Part shown: positions 2,792 through 55,013 of the stretch, piece after piece
How positions within the stretch are numbered: position 1 is the first letter of the stretch
Layout of the letters: each line of letters starts with the position of its first letter
DNA from: an uncultured Verrucomicrobiaceae bacterium
GTDB lineage: Bacteria > Pseudomonadota > Gammaproteobacteria > Pseudomonadales > CAMLJR01
DNA: 64,000 nt
Direction of reading: 5' to 3'
NCBI GenBank assembly: GCA_964638025.1
Contig: CAZWXW010000003.1
Coordinates: 15,126-79,125 of the forward strand
Position numbers and translations under genes: made by a program
The notes under the pieces: generated by a model
Database searches by the model: none
Told to the model about the DNA's origin: nothing
The model's input: only the letters and a program-made list of their open reading frames with translations

Positions 2792-3664
2792 ATGTTTCGC
2801 ATGAATGCCCGTCTCAATACCCATTTCAATGCTCGTCTTGGTGCCAGTGTGCCGCCGGTGCCGTGGTCGCAGACCGCGCCTTCGGGTGGTGTTTCCATCC
2901 GGGGTGTCAGCAAGTCCTACCGCATCGATCGGCGCCAGCTGCCGGTGCTGCACGACATCGCGCTCGACATTCGCCCCGGCGAATTTGTCAGCATCGTCGG
3001 CCCGAGCGGCTGCGGCAAATCGACGCTGCTGCGGCTGATCGCCGGGCTCGATGCCGATTTCAGCGGCGACATCGCGGTCGATGGCGAGCGTGTCGCCGGC
3101 ACCAGCCTCGATCGCGGCATGGTGTTTCAGGACCACCGGCTGCTGCCGTGGCTGACCGTCGAGGAGAATGTCGCGCTGGCGCTGTTGAATCGAGAGCTGT
3201 CGCCACGGCGCAAACGCGAGCTGGTGGCCGACCATATCGCGCTGGTCAATCTGGCTGGCTTCGAGAAGGCCTATCCGCACCAGCTCTCCGGCGGCATGGC
3301 GCAGCGCGCGGCGATGGCGCGCGCGCTGGTCAACGAACCGAAGGTGCTGCTGCTCGACGAACCGCTGGGCGCGCTCGACGCCCTGACCCGCATTCATCTG
3401 CAGCAGGAGCTGCAGCGTATCTGGATGACGCAGCGCGGCACCGTGATCATGGTGACGCACGATGTCGAGGAGGCGGTCTATCTCAGCGATCGCGTGGTGG
3501 TGATGAATGCCGGCCCCGGCACCGTCGCGCGCATCGTCGGGATTCCATTGCCGCATCCGCGCGAACGCTCGTCGTCGCTGCTGCGCAGCGTACGAGATGA
3601 AATTCTCGACGAGCTGATTCGGACGCCGGTCAGTGCCGGCGATACGCAGCGCGGAGACAAATAA
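2792..3664 (+). CDS. ABC importer ATPase (SsuB/TauB-like)
   Basis: ORF 2579-3664, likely start ATG 2792 or 2801; Walker [10 protein letters not shown], signature LSGGMAQR, Walker [12 protein letters not shown]. Confidence 0.85.
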
Positions 3665-4902: not shown

Positions 4903-6030
4903 TCACAGCATGCCGTAGAGCTTGAGGCGATGTCGCAGGATGTTGCGACTGATGCCGAGCAGCTTCGCGGTCTGCAGCTGGTTCTGCTGGCAGTAGTCGA
5001 AGGCGCAGCGAATCATGCGCCGTTCCAGTTCGGCATACAGCTCGTCGCCGCCGCGCTCGAAGATGTTGATCATCGCCCGCTCGTAGGGCTGATCGGAGTC
5101 GGCGATATCCTCGACCAGTCGATGCGTGCCGGTCGGCTCGCTGCCGTGCTGCTGCAGCCGGTATTCCGGCAGATGAAGATCCGAGGCCTGGATCAGGTGG
5201 TCGCTGTGGATCAGCAGCGAGTGGTGAATGACATTCTCCAGCTCGCGGATATTTCCCGGCCAGGGATATGACAACAGCGCCTGCCGGGCGGCGGAGGTCA
5301 GCTGCGGCGGCCGCAGTGACAGCTGCTCCGAATAGCGAATGACGAAGTGCTCCGCCAGCGGCACGATATCGCCGCGCCGATCGCGCAGCGGCGGCACCTG
5401 CACCTGCGCCACGTTGAGGCGGTAGTACAGATCTTCGCGGAAGCGACCGCCGCGAACCGCTTCGGCGAGATTGACGTTGGTCGCCGCGACCAGCCGGATA
5501 TCGATCGGTATCGACACGCGCCCACCGACGCGACTGATCTCGCGCTCCTGCAATACCCGCAGCAGCTTGACCTGGGTGGCCGGTGGCAGATCGCCGATTT
5601 CATCGAGAAACAGCGTGCCGCCGCTGGCGATTTCGAACCAGCCCTTTTTCTGCAGCACCGCGCCGGTGAAGGCGCCTTTTTCATGGCCGAACAGTTCGCT
5701 CTCGACCAGCTGTTCCGGCAGCGCGGCGCAATTGACGGCGATGAAGGGACCGTTGCTGCGACCGCTGAGGTGATGAAGCCGGCGCGCCACCAGCTCCTTG
5801 CCGGTGCCGGTTTCGCCGATGATCAGCACGCTGGCATCGCTCGGCGCCAGCCGCATCAGGCGATCGTGCATCGCGCGCGAGCGCGCATCCTCGAACACCA
5901 GCGCGGTGGCGCGAATGCTGCGCGTATAGGCACCGGGGTTCTTGAACGAGATCAGGCGATCGGACTGGGTGTCCGAGCGCTGGTCGCCAAGATGCCGGGT
6001 GTCAAACGATGGGTCGAGAATGTCGTTCAT
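4903..6030 (-). CDS. Sigma-54-dependent transcriptional activator lacking a receiver/sensor domain (SfnR-like bEBP), R1
   Basis: ORF 4903-6168; ATG 6030 preceded by GGAG; AAA+ core [14 protein letters not shown] motif ([10 protein letters not shown]), LFLDEIGD; C-terminal Fis-type [23 protein letters not shown]; only about 75 aa precede the AAA+ domain. Confidence 0.85.
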
Positions 6031-6217: not shown

Positions 6218-7096
6218 TTACCGGATGGCCGACGGTTCGATGTTGTGTTGCAACTCCGGTTTCCACTCCGGATGCGGGGCGCCGAACAGCGTGCCCTGTG
6301 CCTTCGAAATGCCGGCCCTCTCCATCACCGGGCGAAGGTTCTCGCTGTTGACGCCGGTGGCAATGACCTCGATGCCGTTGTCCTTCGCCGCCGCTACCGC
6401 GTAGCTGACCAGTTCGCTGTGACGGGTGGAGGTCCGCGCCGCTTCCAGCGCGGTGCGATCCAGCTTGATCAGGTTTGGCTGCAGGCCGAGCACCCGGCCG
6501 ATGTGCAGGTGATTGCGGCCGAAGGCATCGATGGCGACGCGATAGCCGCGCGCCTGCCAGGCGCTGATGGCGTTGCGCAGATGCAGGCGGTCGCGCACCG
6601 GGAACTCGTTCACTTCCAGCACGAAGCTGGCGGGGGCCAGACCACAGCCGCGCAGAATCTCTTCGAATACCTGGCCGTGGTCGGAGCTGACGGTCAGCAA
6701 ATGTTCCAGGTGCACATTCAGGTGCAGCGTGCCGCTGCCCTGCTGAACCAGATAATTCAGTGCGTGCAGCGTGCGACTGAGGCGGTCGATATGCGTGATG
6801 TCGGCGTTGTCCGCCACCGATGACTGGATCGGGCTGCTGGCCAGCAGCGGCTTGCGAAACAGCGCGCCGTTCTGCCCCTCCAGCTGCAGAATGGCTTCGT
6901 GCCCAACGAGCTCCCCGGTGTCGATGTCGACAATCGGCTCATACAGGCTGTCGAGGCAGAAGCTGGCGTAGCGGGCGTTGATGCGATCGCCGGCGATGAA
7001 CAGCGGAAGCTCTTCGCCGGTCGCATAACGATCGCGCTGAAAGTAGTTGTGGTTCAAATAGATCAGCAGGTGCTTGACGACTTCGGTGCGGCTCAT
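6218..7096 (-). CDS. Stand-alone EAL-domain protein with degenerate catalytic motifs
   Basis: ORF 6218-7144; ATG 7096 preceded by GGAG; EAL-family blocks [21 protein letters not shown] (for DDFG), IKLDR, ATGVN (for EGVE), AQGTLFG. Confidence 0.75.
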
Positions 7097-7176: not shown

Positions 7177-7305
7177 ATTCTGTTGGGCAAATCGACGTCT
7201 GTAAATTCTTTCGCTTCTATGGAGTTCTCATATCGATATCAGGCGGTTTTTCCAAACGATAGAGGGTGTTTGGCGCTGCTGGCGTGTCACCAGTGTTGTG
7301 GCAGG

Positions 7306-7327
7306 AACTGTTGCTGTAGCAACAGTT
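7306..7327. promoter_or_regulatory. Perfect 22-bp palindrome containing CTGTTG-N6-CAACAG; candidate activator (UAS) site
   Basis: AACTGTTGC-TGTA-GCAACAGTT; 130-150 nt upstream of the 7457 promoter candidate, in the EAL/R1 - P1 divergent region. Confidence 0.45.
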
Positions 7328-7456: not shown

Positions 7457-7472
7457 TGGTATGGCGACTGCA
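7457..7472 (+). promoter_or_regulatory. Candidate sigma-54 (-24/-12) promoter upstream of P1
   Basis: TGGTATGGCGACTGCA; GG to GC spacing as in TGGCAC-N5-TTGC; 43 nt upstream of ATG 7515. Confidence 0.5.
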
Positions 7473-7514: not shown

Positions 7515-8660
7515 ATGGCAAGAGATTTTGCAGCACCTCCCGGTTCTTCAGGGCCCGGCTCTTCAGGGCCCGGCTCTTCAGGGACTTCACGCTTTCCGAC
7601 CACGCTGTGGTATTCGCGCAGCTCGGTGCCGACGGCGCTCGGCATTGCCGCGCAGCTGGGATGGCTGCAGCAGGAGTTTTCGCCTGAAAGCATCGCCGTG
7701 CGTTCGCTGCAGCAGAGCGGCGATCCGCTGCTGCGCGAGAGTCATGTCGATCACCATCTGCCCGACAGCTTTCGCCAGGGCGGCAGCGTGCCGGCGCTGT
7801 GGGCCTATTCCGCCGGCGCCGATACCCGCCTGATCGGATTGACCTGGACCGAAGAGTTTCAGGCCGTGCTCAGCCTGCGCGGCTCCGGCATCGACAGCGC
7901 GCAACAGTTGCGCGGCCGTCGCCTCGGCCTGCCGTCGCGCCCCAACGAGCGCATCGACATGGCGCGGGCGACGGCGCTGCGCGGTTACCTGACGCTGCTC
8001 GATGTCGAGGGGATCGGTTATGACGAGGTGCAGCTGGTGGATGTCGAGACCGCGCCGTTGAGCGCGAATCATCTGCCGATCGACAATCGCAACTCGGCGG
8101 CATGGGCCAGCACGCCGGCGGGACATCTGACCCGGCGCGACTACCGGGCGGATGTGCTGGCGCTGCTGCGCGGCGACGTGGATGCCATCTATGTGAAAGG
8201 CGTGCGCGGCATCGAGGTGGCGCGGCTGCTCGGCGAGCAGGTGCAGGTGGCGGCCGATATCGGCGGCCATCCCGATATTCACGTGCGCAGCAACAACTCG
8301 ACGCCGCGCCCGCTGACGATCAGCGCCTCGACGCTGGAGAACTATCCCGATGTCGCCGTGCGTTTTCTGCGGCGGGTGGTGGAGGCGGGTGCCTGGGCGG
8401 AAACGCATCCGCGCGAGACGGTTGCGCTGCTCGGGCGCGAGACCGGTTCGGTCGAGGAGTGGATCAGCTACGCCTACGGCGTGGAAGTGCACCGCTACCT
8501 GCGCACCGATCTGGCTGATTACGCGCTGTCGGCGCTCGATGATTTCAAGAATTTCCTGTTCAAGTGGGGGTTTCTGCCCCACAACTTCAATCTCAATGGC
8601 TGGGTCGATTTCGAGCCGCTGGAACAGGTGCACAGGCTGCCGCGCAAGCGTATCGCGTAA
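7515..8660 (+). CDS. Cytoplasmic SsuA-fold protein, DszB (sulfinate desulfinase)-like paralog P1; Ser in place of the putative nucleophile Cys
   Basis: No signal peptide; motifs LWYSRSSVPTA, SHVDHHLPDSFRQGG, LIGLTWTEEFQA, LRGRRLGLP, FLFKWGFLP shared with 24607, 35366 and 49784 copies; N-terminal (PGSSG)x3 from a 15-bp tandem repeat. Confidence 0.7.
   Translation: MARDFAAPPGSSGPGSSGPGSSGTSRFPTTLWYSRSSVPTALGIAAQLGWLQQEFSPESIAVRSLQQSGDPLLRESHVDHHLPDSFRQGGSVPALWAYSAGADTRLIGLTWTEEFQAVLSLRGSGIDSAQQLRGRRLGLPSRPNERIDMARATALRGYLTLLDVEGIGYDEVQLVDVETAPLSANHLPIDNRNSAAWASTPAGHLTRRDYRADVLALLRGDVDAIYVKGVRGIEVARLLGEQVQVAADIGGHPDIHVRSNNSTPRPLTISASTLENYPDVAVRFLRRVVEAGAWAETHPRETVALLGRETGSVEEWISYAYGVEVHRYLRTDLADYALSALDDFKNFLFKWGFLPHNFNLNGWVDFEPLEQVHRLPRKRIA
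7541..7585 (+). repeat. 15-bp tandem repeat x3 inside the 5' end of P1 (encodes PGSSG x3)
   Basis: CGGTTCTTCAGGGCC / CGGCTCTTCAGGGCC / CGGCTCTTCAGGGAC. Confidence 0.85.
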
Positions 8661-17772: not shown

Positions 17773-18006
17773 AGCTGATCAGCTGTTTTGAAAAAAGTTG
17801 TTGTAGAGACAGGCCGGCATCAGTCGAAAGACACCATTTTTCGTCGCGCCTGCGTTACTTCGTCTGCAGCAACAACACAAGCTGCTGCAGCAACAGCGCA
17901 GCACCACTCGCTGCCTGTTTGTGCGCGCAGACAAGCAATATTTGCTCATCGATATCTGTAATGCAGCTAATCATATGAGTTTTACCTGACAGCGGAACAC
18001 TGTCGT

Positions 18007-18022
18007 TGGCTTGCAACCTGCA
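18007..18022 (+). promoter_or_regulatory. Candidate sigma-54 promoter upstream of TBDR1
   Basis: TGGCTTGCAACCTGCA; correct spacing; 67 nt upstream of ATG 18089. Confidence 0.5.
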
Positions 18023-18088: not shown

Positions 18089-20470
18089 ATGAAGAGAAAT
18101 ACATTGTGGCTGGCCGTTGCAGCCACGCTGGCGGGAACCTCGATGTCGGCATTGTCCCAGGAAGGGGCGCGAGAACAGGCGCGCGCGCCGGTCAATGAGG
18201 AGCACCGCGCACTGGAAACCGTGGTTGTCACCGCGCAGCGTCGGGCCGAGGCCGCGAAGGATGTTCCGCTGGCGCTTTCCGTTATCGGTGGCGATGACAT
18301 CCTGCGATCCGATCAGATCAAGACCACGAACGACATCGTCAGGTTTGTCCCCAACGCGCATGCCGAGCAGCCGCGCGGACCCTCGCGGGCGCGCTGGTTC
18401 ATTCGCGGTATCGGCACCAACAACACCGGCAACAACACCATCAACCCGGTGGGCATTTATTACGACGATGTCTACATCGCCAACATCAGCAGCCAGGGTT
18501 TTCCGATCTTCGATCTCGACAACGTGGTGGTGCTGAACGGACCACAGGGAACGCTGTGGGGCAAGAACTCCAACGGCGGTGCCATCAACTACGTATCGAA
18601 GGCGCCCAGTTTCGAACACGATGCCTACGCCAAGTTCGGTTACGGCAGCGATGGCGAAAAGCTGCTGCAGGGTGCGGTCGGTGGCGAGATAGTGCCGGAA
18701 CGCGTGGCGGGGCGCTTCTCGTTCTACTACGACGATCTCGATGGCTGGCAGAAGAATATCCACACCGGCGAAGAGCAGGCGGGCGGCACCGAGGAGGCCT
18801 TTCGCGGACAGCTGCTGGTCACGCCGACCGACACGCTGGATATCACCTTCAACGTGCACACCCGCGACTTCAGCGGGCTGACCTTCGGTACGCACTATGT
18901 GCACAGCGATGTCACGCCGCTGACTGGTGGCACCGCAACCCAGCGCGCATTCCTGTCGGTCTATCCCACCGGGTTGCCGGAGACCGGCTACGACGAAACC
19001 AGCGAAGCCAATTCGCTGCCGGAGGAGCTGAAGGCAGAGGGCGCTTTCATCAAGGTCAACTGGGACCTCGGCTTCGCCACGCTGACCTCGATCACCGCCT
19101 ACGAGAACAACGAGCTGTCGACGCGCGGCGGTGCCGCGCCAGTACCGGAAACCAGTCTCTATTACGACAACGGCCGGCCGTTCAGCCTCAGTTACGCCAC
19201 ATCGGAATCGGATCAGTGGAGCGAGGAGATTCGCCTGACCTCGCCGAACGACGGGAAGTTCAAGTGGCTTACCGGTCTCTATGCCTTCTCCGGCGATCTG
19301 GATAACCGCAACGTCAGCGCCAACTATATTCGCGGTGCCAGTACCACCACCGCGAATGCGTGGGGCACCGGCCCGCAGTACACCGATACCATCTATTTCC
19401 AGGAGACCGAAAGCTACGCGGTGTTCGGCAACGCCGGGTATGAGTTCACCGACAGGTTCAAGCTCAGTGCCGGCGTGCGCTGGTCGCATGAAAAGATATC
19501 GATCGACTGGGACTACTCGGCGGCCAACACCGCGGGTACGGCCGCCAGCTTCATCGCCAACCTGCCGCAGACCGAGTATTGGCTCTACACATCGCGCAAC
19601 GTGAATTACCTCGACAGTGACTCGCAGACCTCGACGTCGGTGACCTGGGATATCACGCCCGAATATCGCTTCAGCGATGCGCTTACCGGTTATGCACGGA
19701 TCGCCCACGGTGTACTGCCGGGCGGGTTCACCAGCACCGGCTACGTCGTCGTTCCCGGCGAGAATTTCCGGGCGAACCAGATCTACAAGCTCGATCCGGA
19801 AGAGATCGATGCCTACGAACTGGGTGCCAAGACCAACTGGCTGGATCAGCGCCTGACCGTCGATCTCGCCGGCTTCTACTACGACTACAAGAATCTCGTC
19901 GTCAACGTGCCGACGGTGCTCGACCCCACCAACCCGACCGTGGCGACGGTGCTGTTCCGCAACGCCGGCGCGGCAGAGATCTATGGTTTCGAGCTGCGCG
20001 CCAATGCACTGCTGTTCGACAGCGTGAGAGTGGGCGGTAACATCGGTCTGCTGCACACCGAGTACACCGAAGACACCGGCACCACGGCGACGATTCTCGG
20101 CGCGCAGGCACCGCGTTCGCCGAAGGCGACGGCCAGCTTCTTCGCCGAGTACCGGCAGGAACTGCCGTGGGGCGGCAGCCTGATCTACGGCGTCGATGGC
20201 AACTGGCGCGACAAGTATTACTACTACCCGACGGTGTCATCGCAGAAAACCAATCCCGATCCGCTGCTGTCGCAGGATGCCTTCGCGCTGTTCAATGCCA
20301 GCCTGGGCTGGAGCGTGGACGACAGCGAGAACCTGACATTCCAGTTCTCGGTGCAGAACCTGACGGACGAGGAGTACACCACGCACGGCCTGCCGATCAG
20401 CAACGGTTCCGGGCAGCGCAATTCGGGGCGCCCGCGCAGCTATCTGCTGTCGGTGACGACGCGGTTCTGA
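18089..20470 (+). CDS. TonB-dependent receptor, TBDR1 (paralog of 32395 and 51467 copies)
   Basis: In ORF 18011-20470; ATG 18089 after GGGAGA; signal peptide MKRNTLWLAVAATLAGTSMSALS; plug motifs ETVVVTAQRR, RWFIRGIGT, GPQGTLWGKNSNGGAINY; C-terminal ...SVTTRF. Confidence 0.9.
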   Translation: MKRNTLWLAVAATLAGTSMSALSQEGAREQARAPVNEEHRALETVVVTAQRRAEAAKDVPLALSVIGGDDILRSDQIKTTNDIVRFVPNAHAEQPRGPSRARWFIRGIGTNNTGNNTINPVGIYYDDVYIANISSQGFPIFDLDNVVVLNGPQGTLWGKNSNGGAINYVSKAPSFEHDAYAKFGYGSDGEKLLQGAVGGEIVPERVAGRFSFYYDDLDGWQKNIHTGEEQAGGTEEAFRGQLLVTPTDTLDITFNVHTRDFSGLTFGTHYVHSDVTPLTGGTATQRAFLSVYPTGLPETGYDETSEANSLPEELKAEGAFIKVNWDLGFATLTSITAYENNELSTRGGAAPVPETSLYYDNGRPFSLSYATSESDQWSEEIRLTSPNDGKFKWLTGLYAFSGDLDNRNVSANYIRGASTTTANAWGTGPQYTDTIYFQETESYAVFGNAGYEFTDRFKLSAGVRWSHEKISIDWDYSAANTAGTAASFIANLPQTEYWLYTSRNVNYLDSDSQTSTSVTWDITPEYRFSDALTGYARIAHGVLPGGFTSTGYVVVPGENFRANQIYKLDPEEIDAYELGAKTNWLDQRLTVDLAGFYYDYKNLVVNVPTVLDPTNPTVATVLFRNAGAAEIYGFELRANALLFDSVRVGGNIGLLHTEYTEDTGTTATILGAQAPRSPKATASFFAEYRQELPWGGSLIYGVDGNWRDKYYYYPTVSSQKTNPDPLLSQDAFALFNASLGWSVDDSENLTFQFSVQNLTDEEYTTHGLPISNGSGQRNSGRPRSYLLSVTTRF

Positions 20471-22912: not shown

Positions 22913-24112
22913 TTACAGGAAAGAAGGCTTGGCGAACTCTTCTGCTGCTTCCAGTTGCACGGTGGGAACGCTGTCGTCGAGTGCGCCGCCGTCATCGACC
23001 GATTCGCGCAGCAGGCCATGGCGCTTCAGTAGAGTACGCAATACGTTGCGTGAAATGCCGAGCAGCGCGGCGGTGTGAACCTGGTTGTGGTGCTTGTAGC
23101 GAAATGCTTCGTTGACGATCAGGTTTTCGAACTGATCGAAAATGGGAGATCTGCCGCCGCCATCTTCCGTGATCTGAAACAGCTGGCGCAGCTGCCGGGC
23201 AAGTACGTCCCACGGCGTATCGTCATGATCCTGCCCGACAGGCGGCCGACTTGCTGCGCTGTTCTGCCAGGAGCTTCTGCTCAGCGGACTTCTGCCACCG
23301 GCTATCTTGATGTGTTGAGGCTCTATTGCCTCTTTCTCGGATACCAGCAGCGCGAAATGAATTACATTTTCCAGCTCCCGGATATTGCCCGGCCAGCTGT
23401 AATGTCTCATCAATTCTCTCGTGTCGAATGAAATTTCTGGCTTTCTGCAACCCATTCGTTCGGTGTAGACGCGCAGGAAATATTCCGCCAGTGGCAGGAT
23501 ATCGCCCGGTCTTTCGCGAAGCGGTGGCAGTTCGACGTGCGCAATGTTTATGCGGTAAAGCAGGTCGCGGCGGAAGTGGCCTGCGGCGACCGCGTAATCG
23601 AGATCGACATTGGTGGCGGCAATCAGGCGGATGTCCACCGGGATGCTCTTGCGCGAACCGATGCGCACGACTTCGTGTTCCTGCAGCACGCGCAACAGCT
23701 TGACTTGCAGTGAGAGCGGCAGGTCGCCGATCTCGTCGAGAAACAGCGTGCCACCGTTGGCGGCCTCGAACCAGCCCTCGCGCCGGCCCGTTGCACCAGT
23801 GAAAGAACCGGCCTCGTGACCGAACAGTTCGCTTTCGGCCAGCTGGTCGCTGATGGCACCGCAGTTGACCGCGAGAAAGGGGCCTTTGCGTCCACTCAGG
23901 CGATGTATGTGGCGGGCGACCACCTCCTTGCCGGTGCCGGTTTCGCCGCCGATCAGCACCGGCGCCTCGCTCGGCGCGATGCGCTCGATGTAGTCGAGCA
24001 GCAGGGCCGACACCGGGTCGGAAAAGACCAGCGCCTTCGCCCGGATCGACAGCGGCTGCGCATTGCTTCCCACCAGTGACAGCACGACTGGGTCGGATGT
24101 TTCTTCGCTCAC
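22913..24112 (-). CDS. Sigma-54-dependent transcriptional activator lacking a receiver/sensor domain (SfnR-like bEBP), R2
   Basis: 399 aa; [34 protein letters not shown]; C-terminal [23 protein letters not shown]; short N-terminus. Confidence 0.85.
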
Positions 24113-24287
24113 GGAATTTACTCGAAGTGATCAGTAAAAAAGATGGAGCAGAGAACTATATTCCGGCGATTCTATTAATGAGGGTTGGGATTGCTAACGA
24201 ATTTATGCGTATAAGCTTATCGATTCATTCTGCGAATTTTCCGGGATATTTTGTCGAGTCCGGAGAGCTGTTCGATATCCAGCACTG

Positions 24288-24305
24288 CTGTTGGATTTTC
24301 AACAG
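24288..24305. promoter_or_regulatory. CTGTTG-N6-CAACAG inverted repeat; candidate activator (UAS) site
   Basis: CTGTTGGATTTTCAACAG in the R2 - P2 divergent region; a degenerate copy CTGTTCGATATCCAGCAC lies 21 bp upstream (24267-24284). Confidence 0.4.
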
Positions 24306-24606
24306 AGATCGTCAGAAAAGTGCGATATTTTCCGATTATTCCGTCGTGGTATCCCGATGCTTTGACGGCAATGTATAGTTGCGACCGGCACGCGGACTGT
24401 GAGCTTCCGTCGTTGGCAATGGGCGTCGATTTTTCCGAATTTTCTGAATATTTGGATGAAGACGAGCGCGTGCTTGATTCGGCGCATGGTTGATACTGTC
24501 AACAAATCCGGAATATATAGCGGCGGCGTGTTGCCCCTTTGCGTTGTCAGCCCCTTTGTGTCGTCAGCAGGTATAAGAATTCGTTTCGCCACAGGATTAT
24601 CCGTTC

Positions 24607-25740
24607 ATGCCAACATCCAGAAAGCCCGGAAGACTGCACGAAGTTTTTTACGCCCGAGCCCCGTTCCCGACGCCGGTGGCAATCGCCGTCCAGCTGGGTT
24701 GGATCCAGGATGCGATGCGACATCTTTCAGGTATCGAAGTCAGGTCGTTGAACGAAACGACGAACCCGGCGGATCTGCCGCACCACTTCGAGATCGATCA
24801 CCTCAACGCTTTTCGCCAGGGTGGTAGCATTCCGGTCATCTGGGCGCGCGCCAATCAGCAGGACACCCGTGTCATCGGGCTGACCTGGACCGACGAATAC
24901 CAGGCGCTGGTCGCGCTGCCGCAGTCGCGGATTCATAACGTCAAGGATCTGCGCGGCCGGCGCATCGGCGTGCCGAAGCACAGCATAGTCATCGACCACG
25001 CCCGCGCGTCGGCGCTGCGCGGCTTCAGCGTGCTGCTGGAGAGTGAGGGGATGAGTCTCGCGGATGTGGAGATCGTCGATCTGGAAGATCACGAGATTCC
25101 AACCATGGTGCTCGACGGGCAGGTGATCTCGATGGGAACCGGTCGTCGCGGCCGCCACAGCTACAGCAGCGAGGTTCACGCGATGACCAGCGGCCTGGTC
25201 GACGCGGTCTACGTCAAGGACGTGCGCGGCGCCCAGGCCACCCATCTGATGGGCGCGCAGGTATTCGCCGACATCAACGGCCATCCCGATCCCTATATCC
25301 GCATCAACAACGGCACGCCGCGTCCGCTGACGGTGAACGCGTGGTTGCTGGACAACTATCCGCATCTCGTCGACTGTCTCGTCGAGCAGGTTCACAACGC
25401 GGGTGAGTGGGCCCGCTCCCGTCCCGAGGAGACGCTGACCGTGCTGAGCCGCGAGATCGGTTGGTCGGAGCACTGGGTCAACTACACCTATGGCGACAAC
25501 GTTCACCGCAACCTCGGGCTCGACCTCAACCCGGCCAATGTCGAGCGCTTCACGCGGATGAAGGATTTCCTGCTGCAGCACAATTTCATTCCGCATGATT
25601 TCGATATCGATGCGTGGATCGATCCGGCCCCGCTGGAGCGCTTTCTGCGAAGTCGCAGGGGTGGATCTGTCGACGGCAGGGCATCGGCGCGCGAGAACCG
25701 CTGGTCGTGCCCGCCGGTTCCGCTGCGCTCGTTTCACTGA
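24607..25740 (+). CDS. DszB-like SsuA-fold paralog P2; Ala in place of the putative nucleophile Cys; aberrant C-terminal tail
   Basis: No signal peptide; VFYARAPFPTP, PHHFEIDHLNAFRQGG, VIGLTWTDEYQA, LRGRRIGVP; tail after APLERF is about 18 aa longer than in paralogs and overlaps a DszA-type remnant in another frame. Confidence 0.7.
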   Translation: MPTSRKPGRLHEVFYARAPFPTPVAIAVQLGWIQDAMRHLSGIEVRSLNETTNPADLPHHFEIDHLNAFRQGGSIPVIWARANQQDTRVIGLTWTDEYQALVALPQSRIHNVKDLRGRRIGVPKHSIVIDHARASALRGFSVLLESEGMSLADVEIVDLEDHEIPTMVLDGQVISMGTGRRGRHSYSSEVHAMTSGLVDAVYVKDVRGAQATHLMGAQVFADINGHPDPYIRINNGTPRPLTVNAWLLDNYPHLVDCLVEQVHNAGEWARSRPEETLTVLSREIGWSEHWVNYTYGDNVHRNLGLDLNPANVERFTRMKDFLLQHNFIPHDFDIDAWIDPAPLERFLRSRRGGSVDGRASARENRWSCPPVPLRSFH

Positions 25741-25941
25741 CGAACCGTGGTTGGTCGAGCGCGGCGCCGACGGCTTCAGTGTCGTGCCGCCGTACCTGCC
25801 GCAGGGGTTCGAGGATTTCGCCGTGCCGAACCTCGCTGACAAGAAATGCATCATGGTCATCAGTTCCGGCGGCGCGGGAAAATCGACGTCCTCGCGCGCT
25901 GGCTGCGCGCAGCTGTTACCGGATCAACACTCATCACCGCT
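25689..25941 (+). pseudogene. Remnant (last ~85 codons, frameshifted) of a DszA/NtaA-family LLM monooxygenase gene
   Basis: Three frames together read AREPLVVPAGSAALV / TDEPWLVERGADGFSVVPPYLPQGFEDFAVPNL / REN... . This matches the C-terminus of 48354-49700 (ARGHVQVIGSVKTVADTIEQWFVERAADGFNVIPPYLPQGFEDFVRLVVPEL...FRENLGL). EDF-to-REN is 11 nt shorter than in the intact copy (9-nt deletion plus 2-nt frameshift). Confidence 0.6.
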
Positions 25942-26056
25942 TCGCTGCTGAATTGCTAACAGCCGCTTTCGCAACAGCGCGAACTTCCGCACACGATCCA
26001 CCAAAATTTTCTTTTGTTCTCCGTAGTTGCAAATCGTCATCGACGTTGAAACGAGT

Positions 26057-26072
26057 TGGAATGGATCGTGCC
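26057..26072 (+). promoter_or_regulatory. Candidate sigma-54 promoter upstream of yejB-like 1
   Basis: TGGAATGGATCGTGCC; correct spacing; 57 nt upstream of ATG 26129, downstream of the DszA-type remnant. Confidence 0.4.
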
Positions 26073-26128
26073 TGACGTTGCGGATGGAAACCTGTTTCAG
26101 CGTTTCGATGCCGTGACGGAATAGATCG

Positions 26129-29968: not shown

Positions 29969-30088
29969 GGCAACCTCTCCCCTCTCCCTTCAGGGAGAGG
30001 GGCCGGGGGAGAGGGTGTTCGGCGATGGCATTGCGTATTTCCCCTCTCCCTAACCCTCTCCCTTCAGGGAGAGGGGACTTGGTCAGTG
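29969..30088. repeat. REP/MITE-like element, copy C (double hairpin), after yejF-like 1
   Basis: CCTCTCCCCTCTCCCTTCAGGGAGAGGGGCCGGGGGAGAGGG ... CCCCTCTCCCTAACCCTCTCCCTTCAGGGAGAGGGGACTTGGTCAG. Confidence 0.85.
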
Positions 30089-30109
30089 CGCCCTTGAGTC
30101 CTGATGATG

Positions 30110-30145
30110 CGCTGCGCGTGTGAAGACAGCTTCACACGCGCAGCG
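30110..30145. other. 16-bp perfect-stem hairpin / inverted repeat after REP copy C
   Basis: CGCTGCGCGTGTGAAG-ACAG-CTTCACACGCGCAGCG; no U-tract follows. Confidence 0.6.
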
Positions 30146-30318
30146 AAGCATTGCCGGTAAATCACGATTTTTCAGTGAATCATTCTCTGTTTTCTTTTGC
30201 ACAAGCGCATCGGAATATCTGTTCAAAAACAACCAGCGCGTTTTTAGACGTAACTTCGTCCATCTGAAAAATCAGTGAATTTCAGCGCATTGCACGATTT
30301 TTCCATGCTTCCGAAAGT

Positions 30319-30334
30319 TGGCTCGATTTCTGCC
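30319..30334 (+). promoter_or_regulatory. Candidate sigma-54 promoter upstream of yejA-like 1 / TBDR2 / CDO-like / P3
   Basis: TGGCTCGATTTCTGCC; shares TTTCTGCC with the tonB site; 79 nt upstream of GTG 30413. Confidence 0.5.
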
Positions 30335-50915: not shown

Positions 50916-50931
50916 AGCATGCTCCATGCCA
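50916..50931 (-). promoter_or_regulatory. Candidate sigma-54 promoter upstream of the P4 / DszA-like operon
   Basis: Minus strand reads TGGCATGGAGCATGCT; correct spacing; 50 nt upstream of ATG 50866. Confidence 0.55.
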
Positions 50932-51379
50932 GCTTGCCGAATGCCGCTGTCCCGGCGGCGACTGTCGCCATTGAATCCACTTATTTTCACGGGGATTTCG
51001 CCGAAAAATCGGCCTGGAACAACTTTGAACGAGTTGTCTATCCGGGACGGTTGCCGCCGCCATGTCGGGGAGCGCTGCTGTTTTCAGCGATGCCTGTGCG
51101 TTTAATCCAGCAGGGGATGCGCAGTACTGTTGAAATTTACGCGGCGTACGCGGCGGCGGTGGCCGCTCGCCAGCTGCGACCGGCGCCTTCCTTCTCGCCC
51201 GAACATGGCGGTCGGGTGCAATCGCATGTCATCAATGAAAATACACGTCGTCTGAATCACCGCGTCGATGAGAGTAGAGAAAATAAACTGCGTCTATTTT
51301 CTTTTCGAAGATTTCTTGTCGCAGAAAATGGCGTCATCAGATATCGAAGCACGAATTGGAAAATGGTTATTTTTTTCCA

Positions 51380-51395
51380 TGGCATGGTTTTCGCT
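51380..51395 (+). promoter_or_regulatory. Candidate sigma-54 promoter upstream of TBDR3
   Basis: TGGCATGGTTTTCGCT; correct spacing; 72 nt upstream of ATG 51467; divergent from the 50916-50931 site. Confidence 0.5.
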
Positions 51396-54997: not shown

Positions 54998-55013
54998 AGC
55001 ACATGCCGTGCCA
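54998..55013 (-). promoter_or_regulatory. Candidate sigma-54 promoter upstream of the dienelactone hydrolase gene
   Basis: Minus strand reads TGGCACGGCATGTGCT (closest to the TGGCACG-N4-TTGCW consensus); 75 nt upstream of start 54923. Confidence 0.55.

Follow-up and report, generated by a model that had tools for sequence, protein, structure and literature searches.

The window analysed here is a 64-kb stretch of DNA from an uncultured bacterium whose nearest genome is a MAG labelled Verrucomicrobiaceae. Judging from its gene content, this window is a sulfur-scavenging island in which two regulator genes, R1 and R2, are linked to organosulfur genes (Table 1). Besides the two DszB/SsuA-like genes S1 and S2, two further SsuA-like genes are present, along with three luciferase-like monooxygenases, two ABC systems of the Dpp type and three TonB-dependent receptors accompanied by TonB-ExbBD; only two genes of the window encode bEBPs. 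R1 and the EAL-domain gene that precedes it likely form one operon on the minus strand, which is separated by a 418-bp divergent region from the S1 operon on the plus strand, where S1 is followed by genes for a TPR protein, an HlyD-type adaptor and two RND pumps. R2 and S2 diverge in the same manner from a 494-bp region. The paralogues S1 and S2 are 42% identical, and the Cys of the family consensus is replaced in both, by Ser in S1 (WYSRSS versus WYTRCP) and by a different residue in S2. Each of the two divergent regions holds an inverted repeat, referred to here as site 1 and site 2.

Table 1. Genes, palindromic sites and predicted promoters in the 64-kb window.
Feature	Position	Strand	Description
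R1	4903-6030	-	375-aa SfnR-type sigma-54 activator; AAA+ with GAFTGA, Fis-type HTH, no N-terminal sensor domain
EAL-domain gene	6218-7096	-	Upstream of R1, same strand; divergent from S1
Sigma-70-like promoter for EAL-R1	7177-7205	-	TTTACA-17-CAGAAT; block kept in L001
Site 1	7306-7327	.	AACTGTTGCTGTAGCAACAGTT = AACTGTTGC-TGTA-GCAACAGTT; perfect SfnR-family match, putative UAS
Sigma-54 (-24/-12) promoter, S1 operon	7457-7472	+	TGGTATGGCGACTGCA; correct spacing
S1	7515-8660	+	SsuA/NMT1-fold, DszB-like; first gene downstream of site 1
Candidate weak site	17878-17897	.	CAAGCTGCTGCAGCAACAGC; TGCTGC-N4-GCAACA type with one further mismatch; 12.5 bits
Sigma-54 promoter candidate	18007-18022	+	TGGCTTGCAACCTGCA; upstream of TBDR1
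TBDR1	18089-20470		TonB-dependent receptor gene
R2	22913-24112	-	Second SfnR-type activator, 399 aa; GSFTGA; HTH
Sigma-70-like promoter for R2	24197-24169		
Degenerate copy upstream of site 2	24267-24284	.	GCTGTTCGATATCCAGCA
Site 2	24288-24305	.	CTGTTGGATTTTCAACAG = CTGTTG-GATTTT-CAACAG; predicted R2-clade variant
S2	24607-25740	+	Second DszB/SsuA-like gene, divergent from R2; Ala replaces consensus Cys
Weak candidate	25912-25931	.	GCTGTTACCGGATCAACACT; 13.6 bits
Weak -24/-12 match	26057-26072		TGGAATGGATCGTGCC; before Dpp-like permease gene; ~135 bp downstream of 25912-25931

R1 and R2 are 50% identical to each other, with the similarity running through the C-terminal HTH. Both match the AAA+ sigma-54 interaction domain PF00158 (E = 4e-70 for R1 and 1e-65 for R2), and the loop that reads GAFTGA in R1 reads GSFTGA in R2 and its clade. 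Pfam detects nothing N-terminal to AAA+ in either protein, be it a receiver, GAF, PAS or V4R domain; the AAA+ domain of R2 begins at residue 33, and the database form of R1 has its start at 6030. The Fis-type HTH was recognized in R1 by PF02954 (at 379-417), and R2 aligns with R1 through this segment, with no PF02954 match of its own in Pfam at E < 0.001. When we searched for homologues of R1, only sensor-less activators of 355-390 aa were returned, including a Pseudomonas aeruginosa protein at 60%, and R1 was found to be 59-60% identical to PA2359 (SfnR2/Sfa3) and 56% identical to PA2354 (SfnR1) of this species. NCBIfam holds no SfnR model, and all equivalog matches of R1 and R2 were far below the cut-offs. 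By their measured kinship with the P. aeruginosa SfnR1 and SfnR2, R1 and R2 belong at the sequence level to the SfnR family.

The original prediction described a CTGTTG-N6-CAACAG repeat in both divergent regions together with a degenerate copy next to site 2, and all three are present where it put them, each repeat lying between an activator-side gene and a DszB-like gene as the divergent gene layout confirms. Its description of site 1 as a perfect 22-bp palindrome is slightly overstated, since the perfect 9-bp arms enclose a 4-nt spacer, TGTA, that is not palindromic. The degenerate copy is, as predicted, a poor one, with 4 mismatches to TGTTGC-N4-GCAACA and a centre-to-centre distance of 21 bp from site 2. 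With up to one mismatch allowed, CTGTTG-N6-CAACAG has exactly two matches in the 64 kb (7308-7325 and 24288-24305), compared to 0.11 expected, and two such matches were seen in none of 100 shuffled windows; the 0.01 chance occurrences estimated earlier are of the right order of magnitude for exact matches. Both copies are exact, and both stand in the intergenic region between a regulator and its divergent target, one beside R1 and the other beside R2.

To score the sites, we used a weight matrix built from 40 sites, all of them external to the window. Site 1 reached 26.4 bits, while the highest score in 200 simulated windows was 20.4, and among the sites considered it alone matches the family consensus (C)TGTTGC-N4-GCAACA(G). 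Site 2 scored only 12.1 bits because the inner G and C of its arms are replaced (TGTTGg-ATTT-tCAACA), and this score is not significant alone.

The centre of site 1 lies ~141 bp upstream of the GG of the S1 promoter, within the 130-150 nt originally predicted. The closest relative, L001, is a MAG labelled Verrucomicrobiaceae, and its S1 and R1 are 87% and 91% identical to those of the window. Site 1 is kept there as AACTGTTGCTGTGGCAGCAGTT inside otherwise diverged intergenic DNA; the retained block reads GGCAG-AACTGTTGCTGT-GCA-CAGTTG, and its one change produces a GCAGCA arm, which is tolerated. L001 also has a promoter at the equivalent place, TGGTATGGTGGCTGCT, and keeps the start-codon context of the EAL gene. 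Relatives usually have a pair of sites, but site 1 stands alone as one strong copy. We found no second tandem site better than 3 mismatches at +/-30-33 bp, and the only other TGTTG half-sites nearby are at 7294, 7359 and 7379. Inspection by eye revealed no IHF consensus between site 1 and its promoter.

We scanned one genome per species with an S-protein profile, which yielded 76 loci totalling 972 kb. The exact 18-mer pattern occurred 9 times in this DNA and a further 25 times with one mismatch, compared to ~0.04 exact matches expected from base composition, and the matches precede S-like genes that have a sigma-54 promoter of the type TGGCCYGGAAYTTGCA. The usual arrangement is a tandem of TGTTGC-N4-GCAACA and TGCTGC-N4-GCAACA, with the copies 30 bp apart (33 bp in Methylophilaceae) and 90-145 bp upstream of the -24/-12 element, and it was found in Paraburkholderia, Burkholderia, Rudaea, a Methylococcaceae MAG and several Methylophilaceae. 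An unbiased count of 6-mers 30-220 bp upstream of those promoters placed TGTTGC/GCAACA near the top (76 versus 5.5 expected), with ACTGTT/AACAGT and CTGTTG/CAACAG also high. Allowing no more than one mismatch, the 972 kb contain 68 matches; 65 of these are followed at a distance of 50-250 bp by a sigma-54-like promoter, and such upstream zones make up only 14% of the bases. Since the external loci are related to each other, these statistics and their nominal P values overstate independence, but the association extends over several bacterial families. The original prediction had proposed to check whether the motif is common without promoter association, and in these related loci it is not. The motif is conserved and associated with sigma-54 promoters.

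The form of the motif also varies with the recognition helix of the regulators. The helix RNI(L/V)R(H/A)RL, which is shared by R1, SfnR2 and the Burkholderia proteins, pairs with sites that have the inner GC; the helix of the R2 clade, RNV(L/M)RTLLKRHG, pairs with an AT-rich spacer; and the Oxalobacteraceae helix, RNIVRARTAQFGIH, pairs with TGGTG-N6-CACCA. This joint variation supports R-family proteins as the readers of these sites.

The same palindrome was found at a P. aeruginosa locus with the order H3-T6SS genes, activator, small ORF, FMN reductase, luciferase-like monooxygenase, acyl-CoA-dehydrogenase-like gene and second activator. By position, this locus is PA2359-PA2354, where msuEDC lies between two activator genes that are named SfnR2 (= Sfa3) and SfnR1 in papers. 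The palindrome ACTGTTGC-N4-GCAACAGT (ACTGTTGCCCGGGCAACAGT; CTGTTGC-N4-GCAACAG) stands ~92 bp upstream of the msuE sigma-54 promoter, whose -24/-12 sequence is TGGTACGGCCCTTGCT, and a half-degenerate second copy lies 31 bp from the first. Its counterpart at site 1 of the window is ACTGTTGCTGTAGCAACAGT, while site 2 agrees with the site of this known locus in no more than the outermost 5-6 bases per arm, its spacer being AT-rich and the inner GC absent. Since the msuE palindrome stands beside SfnR1 and SfnR2, the window motif would be an SfnR-family enhancer. Full-text searches found no statement of the motif in papers citing SfnR work, and we infer the match to experimentally mapped SfnR sites from only the msuE upstream sequence.

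Together, these findings suggest that the repeat is probably a UAS (enhancer) of SfnR-family sigma-54 activators. The original prediction, that it is the UAS for R1 and R2, is thus in essence upheld for site 1; for site 2 it is plausible but incomplete, because the GG-N10-GC promoter is missing, and for the further, weak match at 17884 it is no more than a candidate role.

This further match had been described as a related 13-mer at 17884-17897, about 115 nt upstream of the TBDR1 promoter. The sequence, GCTGCAGCAACAG, is present, but since it is 13 nt long it ends at 17896, and the end coordinate was one base too long. The distance to the promoter is indeed close (~117 nt), but the match is weak and has no orthologous support. 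At its score, the 17878-17897 site is not significant alone, with about one such match expected per window. It is possible, if somewhat doubtful, that the matches at 17884 and 25912, and perhaps the 24267 copy as well, are chance products of CTGCTG/CAGCAG-rich sequence. Scores of 12-14 bits are consistent with such an origin, as are the 7 matches of at least 12 bits seen in the window, several of them inside genes, where 1.1 are expected under a Markov null. The two nearest TBDR1 homologues (L086 and L116), which have neither a sigma-54 promoter nor the motif, also point this way, and because both elements are absent, these two loci are uninformative on the 17884 site itself. On the other hand, each of the 17884 and 25912 matches is followed after 115-135 bp by a -24/-12 match, a placement whose chance is ~0.003-0.02 per promoter, and the sequence of the 17878-17897 site, read from 17880, is one base off the promoter-proximal (second) site of Paraburkholderia fungorum, TGCTGCTGCAGCAACA. 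No orthologous TBDR1 promoter was found in a metagenome scan (homologues at 65% and 52%, the rest at 35% or less), and the contig of the sister MAG, L083, gives no TBDR1 promoter region because the contig begins within the gene before TonB. Elsewhere in the window, the motif is absent at the other good sigma-54 promoters (30319, 50916, 51380 and 54998), so it does not explain the whole island.

On sequence grounds, site 2 is the R2-clade version of the SfnR-type element, and a UAS role toward S2 is plausible. Its support comes from conservation in orthologous loci rather than from its score. In the orthologous R2-S2 loci, which we found via S2 homologues, the site is kept as GCTGTTGGATTTTCAACAG (L080) and GCTGCTGATTTTTCAACAG (L079), while the spacers are otherwise diverged and rearranged. 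The position of the degenerate copy at 24267 holds a better site in L079 (CTGTTGCATATCCAGCA) and in L082 (ATGTTTAACAAGCAACAC). In an Agitococcus locus (L076) whose R2-like regulator is 69% identical, GTGTTGTCAAAACAACAC lies ~75 bp upstream of a strong sigma-54 promoter, and the more distant L082 has a perfect sigma-54 promoter, TGGCACAGATTCTGCA, at -85. Between site 2 and the start of S2, the window, L079 and L080 all lack a GG-N10-GC element, and we found no canonical sigma-54 promoter for R2 on the other strand. The near-misses after site 2 are TGGTATCCCGATGC and GGCGGCGTGTTGC, which are one base short, and TGGCACATTTCCCTGC in L080, which is one base long. The output of site 2 in this lineage may run through a non-canonical promoter, or the site may be a regulator-proximal control site or a remnant.

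We consider it unlikely, yet well worth weighing, that site 2 is a binding site of the family and at the same time not a working enhancer of S2, either because it is a remnant whose sigma-54 promoter has decayed or because R2 uses it to tune its own or the S2 sigma-70-like promoter. The candidate S2 promoter of this type reads TTGATA-N17/18-TATATA (24487-24516). That L082 has a GG-N10-GC promoter whereas the window, L079 and L080 do not would fit such a site, and so would the mis-spacing of the near-miss promoters by a single base, the loss of genes compared to L083 (the region after S2 resembles the remnant of a monooxygenase gene) and the presence of the sigma-70-like promoter for R2. SfnR represses its own operon in P. 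putida, and this self-repression would be in line with tuning by R2. On the other hand, site 2 is kept in three loci, none of which has the canonical promoter, and this argues for a current function and not for decay. In addition, its position ~134 bp upstream of the putative R2 start site is not that of an operator, and like sites precede canonical sigma-54 promoters in L076 and L082.

It is very unlikely that the palindrome is instead bound by another sulfur regulator, such as a LysR protein of the CysB/Cbl type, with R1, R2 and the sigma-54 promoters simply co-occurring. Such a regulator would account for an association with sulfur-scavenging genes in general, and for Methylophilaceae loci that have the motif and no R-like gene within 7 kb. 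However, a tandem arrangement with 30-33 bp between the copies, placed -90 to -150 from the -24/-12 element, is typical of bEBP enhancers, and a different regulator is also hard to reconcile with the near-complete confinement of the matches to the upstream zone of sigma-54 promoters, with the co-variation of motif and R-family recognition helix, and with the P. aeruginosa copy that sits between sfnR2 and the msuEDC-sfnR1 operon. We rejected as scarcely credible the reading of the repeats as RNA hairpins (terminators or 5'-UTR structures) instead of DNA sites: site 1 does fold to a 9-bp hairpin of -12.7 kcal/mol, but the genes on either side run away from each site, which leaves nothing to terminate, no T-run follows the sites, the fold z-scores are weak (-1.8 and -0.8) with the best fold of site 2 skipping the repeat, and across species the arms are invariant and the spacer alone varies, with compensatory changes absent.

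As an enhancer of SfnR-family activators, the repeat would be read by a dimer of HTH domains, each contacting one of the two TGTTG(C)/(G)CAACA half-sites. Once bound, the R protein would form the active AAA+ ring, DNA looping would bring this ring to sigma-54 RNA polymerase at the -24/-12 element ~140 bp downstream, and ATP hydrolysis would open the promoter. Site 1 would in this way turn on the operon of S1, the DszB/SsuA-like gene, and the TPR gene, and probably also the HlyD/RND genes that follow. Since neither R1 nor R2 has a sensor domain, control would most likely be exerted through the amount of the two proteins, which their own sigma-70-type promoters would set when sulfur is limiting, a mode of control reported for Pseudomonas SfnR, with CysB. 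The pairing of each paralog with its site, the looping and the sulfur signal are steps that we infer.

A more speculative reading, which we offer tentatively and think rather improbable when taken as a whole, is that the SfnR paralogs R1 and R2 share one genome but have come to differ in DNA specificity, insulating sulfur sub-regulons from each other, and that R2 acts in this lineage at a conserved site that has no canonically spaced sigma-54 promoter. R1 would then read TGTTGC-N4-GCAACA and R2 TGTTG-(AT-rich N6)-CAACA, while the Oxalobacteraceae lineage would read TGGTG-N6-CACCA. If specificities have split in this way, site 2 would imply an unusual promoter or a role other than activation.

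In Pseudomonas, SfnR works with sigma-54 to activate genes for the utilisation of sulfones and sulfonates, and its expression is under CysB control. SfnR of P. putida DS1 and SfnR1/SfnR2 of P. aeruginosa are, like R1 and R2, sensor-less proteins of ~360-400 aa with an AAA+ domain and a Fis-type HTH, and they are linked, as in the window, to FMNH2-monooxygenase and sulfur-scavenging genes. The known SfnR enhancer sites are at sfnFG, sfnA and msuEDC, and the palindrome at msuE is the same as that of site 1. The systems differ in their targets, which are sfnFG/msuEDC for SfnR and, in the window, Cys-less DszB/SsuA-like, TPR and RND efflux genes and perhaps a TonB-dependent receptor gene. Unlike these comparison systems, the window has two paralogs with apparently different spacer preferences, and it comes from an organism that has not been cultured.

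Other sigma-54 systems share parts of this layout. PspF, which acts on pspA, is like R1 and R2 a sigma-54 activator without an N-terminal regulatory domain that is encoded divergently from its target, and its inverted-repeat UAS lies ~80-130 bp upstream of the -24/-12 element, a layout like that of site 1. It differs in its antagonist PspA, its stress-operon target and an unrelated site sequence, and R1 and R2 fall far short of the cut-offs set for the PspF models of NCBIfam. The enhancers of NtrC and NifA resemble those of the present family in that the dyads are often in tandem about three helical turns apart, 100-150 bp before GG-N10-GC, and in that a Fis-type HTH reads each half-site, as proposed here. 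On the other hand, NtrC and NifA have receiver or GAF sensor domains, which R1 and R2 lack, and their half-site sequences differ (TGCACC-N5-GGTGCA for NtrC and TGT-N10-ACA for NifA).

The element adds one more example to a known class of enhancer, that of the SfnR type, and is not conceptually new. It supplies a regulatory logic for this sulfur-scavenging island, which is otherwise unannotated and belongs to an uncultured bacterium; here two sensor-less SfnR-type activators and their predicted sites probably drive DszB/SsuA-like genes, efflux genes and perhaps TonB-dependent uptake genes. A review of T6SS accessory genes from 2026 still lists the mechanism of Sfa3 as unknown, and the palindrome upstream of msuE suggests that in P. 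aeruginosa Sfa3/SfnR2 acts on sulfur genes, msuEDC among them. A possible divergence in specificity between R1 and R2 and the promoter missing at S2 form a side question. The main value of the finding lies in annotation and in regulon prediction, for which the (C)TGTTGC-N4-GCAACA(G) weight matrix can be applied to the SfnR regulons of Burkholderia, Pseudomonas, methylotrophs and MAGs.

Upstream of S2, the DszB/SsuA-like gene divergent from the SfnR-type sigma-54 activator gene R2, we found -24/-12 look-alikes only with the wrong spacing: TGGTATCCCGATGC at 24346-24361 and GGCGGCGTGTTGC at 24523-24536, both GG-N9-GC. The orthologous locus L080 carries a look-alike, TGGCACATTTCCCTGC, at about 3296-3312 with GG-N11-GC spacing, and the more distant locus L082 has a perfect -24/-12 element, TGGCACAGATTCTGCA. 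In the R2 clade, window R2 (22913-24112) included, the sigma-54 contact loop reads GSFTGA, not GAFTGA, and this variant is also found in clade members adjoining canonical sigma-54 promoters (L076, from Agitococcus, and L082). On the R2 side, a block, AATTTATGCGTATAAGCTTAT, lies upstream of R2 at 24200-24220 and is near-invariant in all five orthologous loci (the window, L079, L080, L081, and L082), where it is better conserved than the TGTTG-N6-CAACA palindrome, the putative SfnR-type enhancer. A regulator other than R1 or R2, perhaps of the CysB type, may bind this block, or the block may be a piece of the R2 promoter.

Variation in the repeat was also seen in relatives. Upstream of homologous sigma-54 promoters in Massilia and Duganella (L019, L023, and L067), TGGTG-N6-CACCA replaces TGTTG-N6-CAACA, and the R-like proteins adjoining these repeats are altered in the segment past the recognition helix (RNIVRARTAQFGIH). 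Within the window, none of the four further sigma-54 promoters has a TGTTG-N6-CAACA site, nor does the window hold a third sigma-54 activator (bEBP) gene. The divergent region between two of these promoters contains two other inverted repeats, at which a different activator may bind.

Further sigma-54 promoter matches in the window and the inverted repeats between two of them
Feature	Position	Strand	Context
sigma-54 promoter match, good	30319-30334		precedes family-5 solute-binding protein
sigma-54 promoter match, good	50916-50931	-	precedes SsuA-like/monooxygenase/Dpp operon
sigma-54 promoter match, good	51380-51395		precedes TonB-dependent receptor
sigma-54 promoter match, good	54998-55013	-	precedes dienelactone hydrolase
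inverted repeat ACAACT-N7-AGTTGT	51018-51037		divergent region between promoters 50916 and 51380
inverted repeat GGCGAC-T-GTCGCC	50957-50969		divergent region between promoters 50916 and 51380

In the N-terminal WYTRCPVPT motif of the divergent genes' products, the family-consensus Cys is replaced by Ser in S1 (7515-8660) and by Ala in S2 (24607-25740). As DszB has its catalytic Cys at this position, S1 and S2 are unlikely to act as DszB-type desulfinases. The 5' end of S1 also contains three copies of a 15-bp tandem repeat, CCCGGCTCTTCAGGG (7539-7583), which encodes a repeated GPGSS segment absent from homologues; homologue alignments to S1 begin at about residue 25.

Downstream of S2, the sister MAG (L083, 8451-11352) has an additional NMT1-like gene and a luciferase-like monooxygenase gene before the Dpp permease, compared with only about 390 bp in the window (25741-26128). 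Because part of this gap resembles, by eye, the 3' end of a monooxygenase gene, it is probably a deletion remnant. Between the Dpp ATPase and solute-binding protein genes lie REP-like elements (29971-30077 and 30104-30151), consisting of two identical self-complementary 23-nt copies of CCCTCTCCCTTCAGGGAGAGGGG and a separate 22-nt hairpin.

In P. aeruginosa (L077, 11589-11640, upstream of msuE), the DNA separating msuE from sfa3/sfnR2 (PA2359), whose product is about 60% identical to R1, carries a perfect copy of the family palindrome together with a sigma-54 promoter. The mechanism of Sfa3 was still given as unknown in a 2026 T6SS review. The palindrome upstream of msuE points to sulfur genes as an Sfa3 target.
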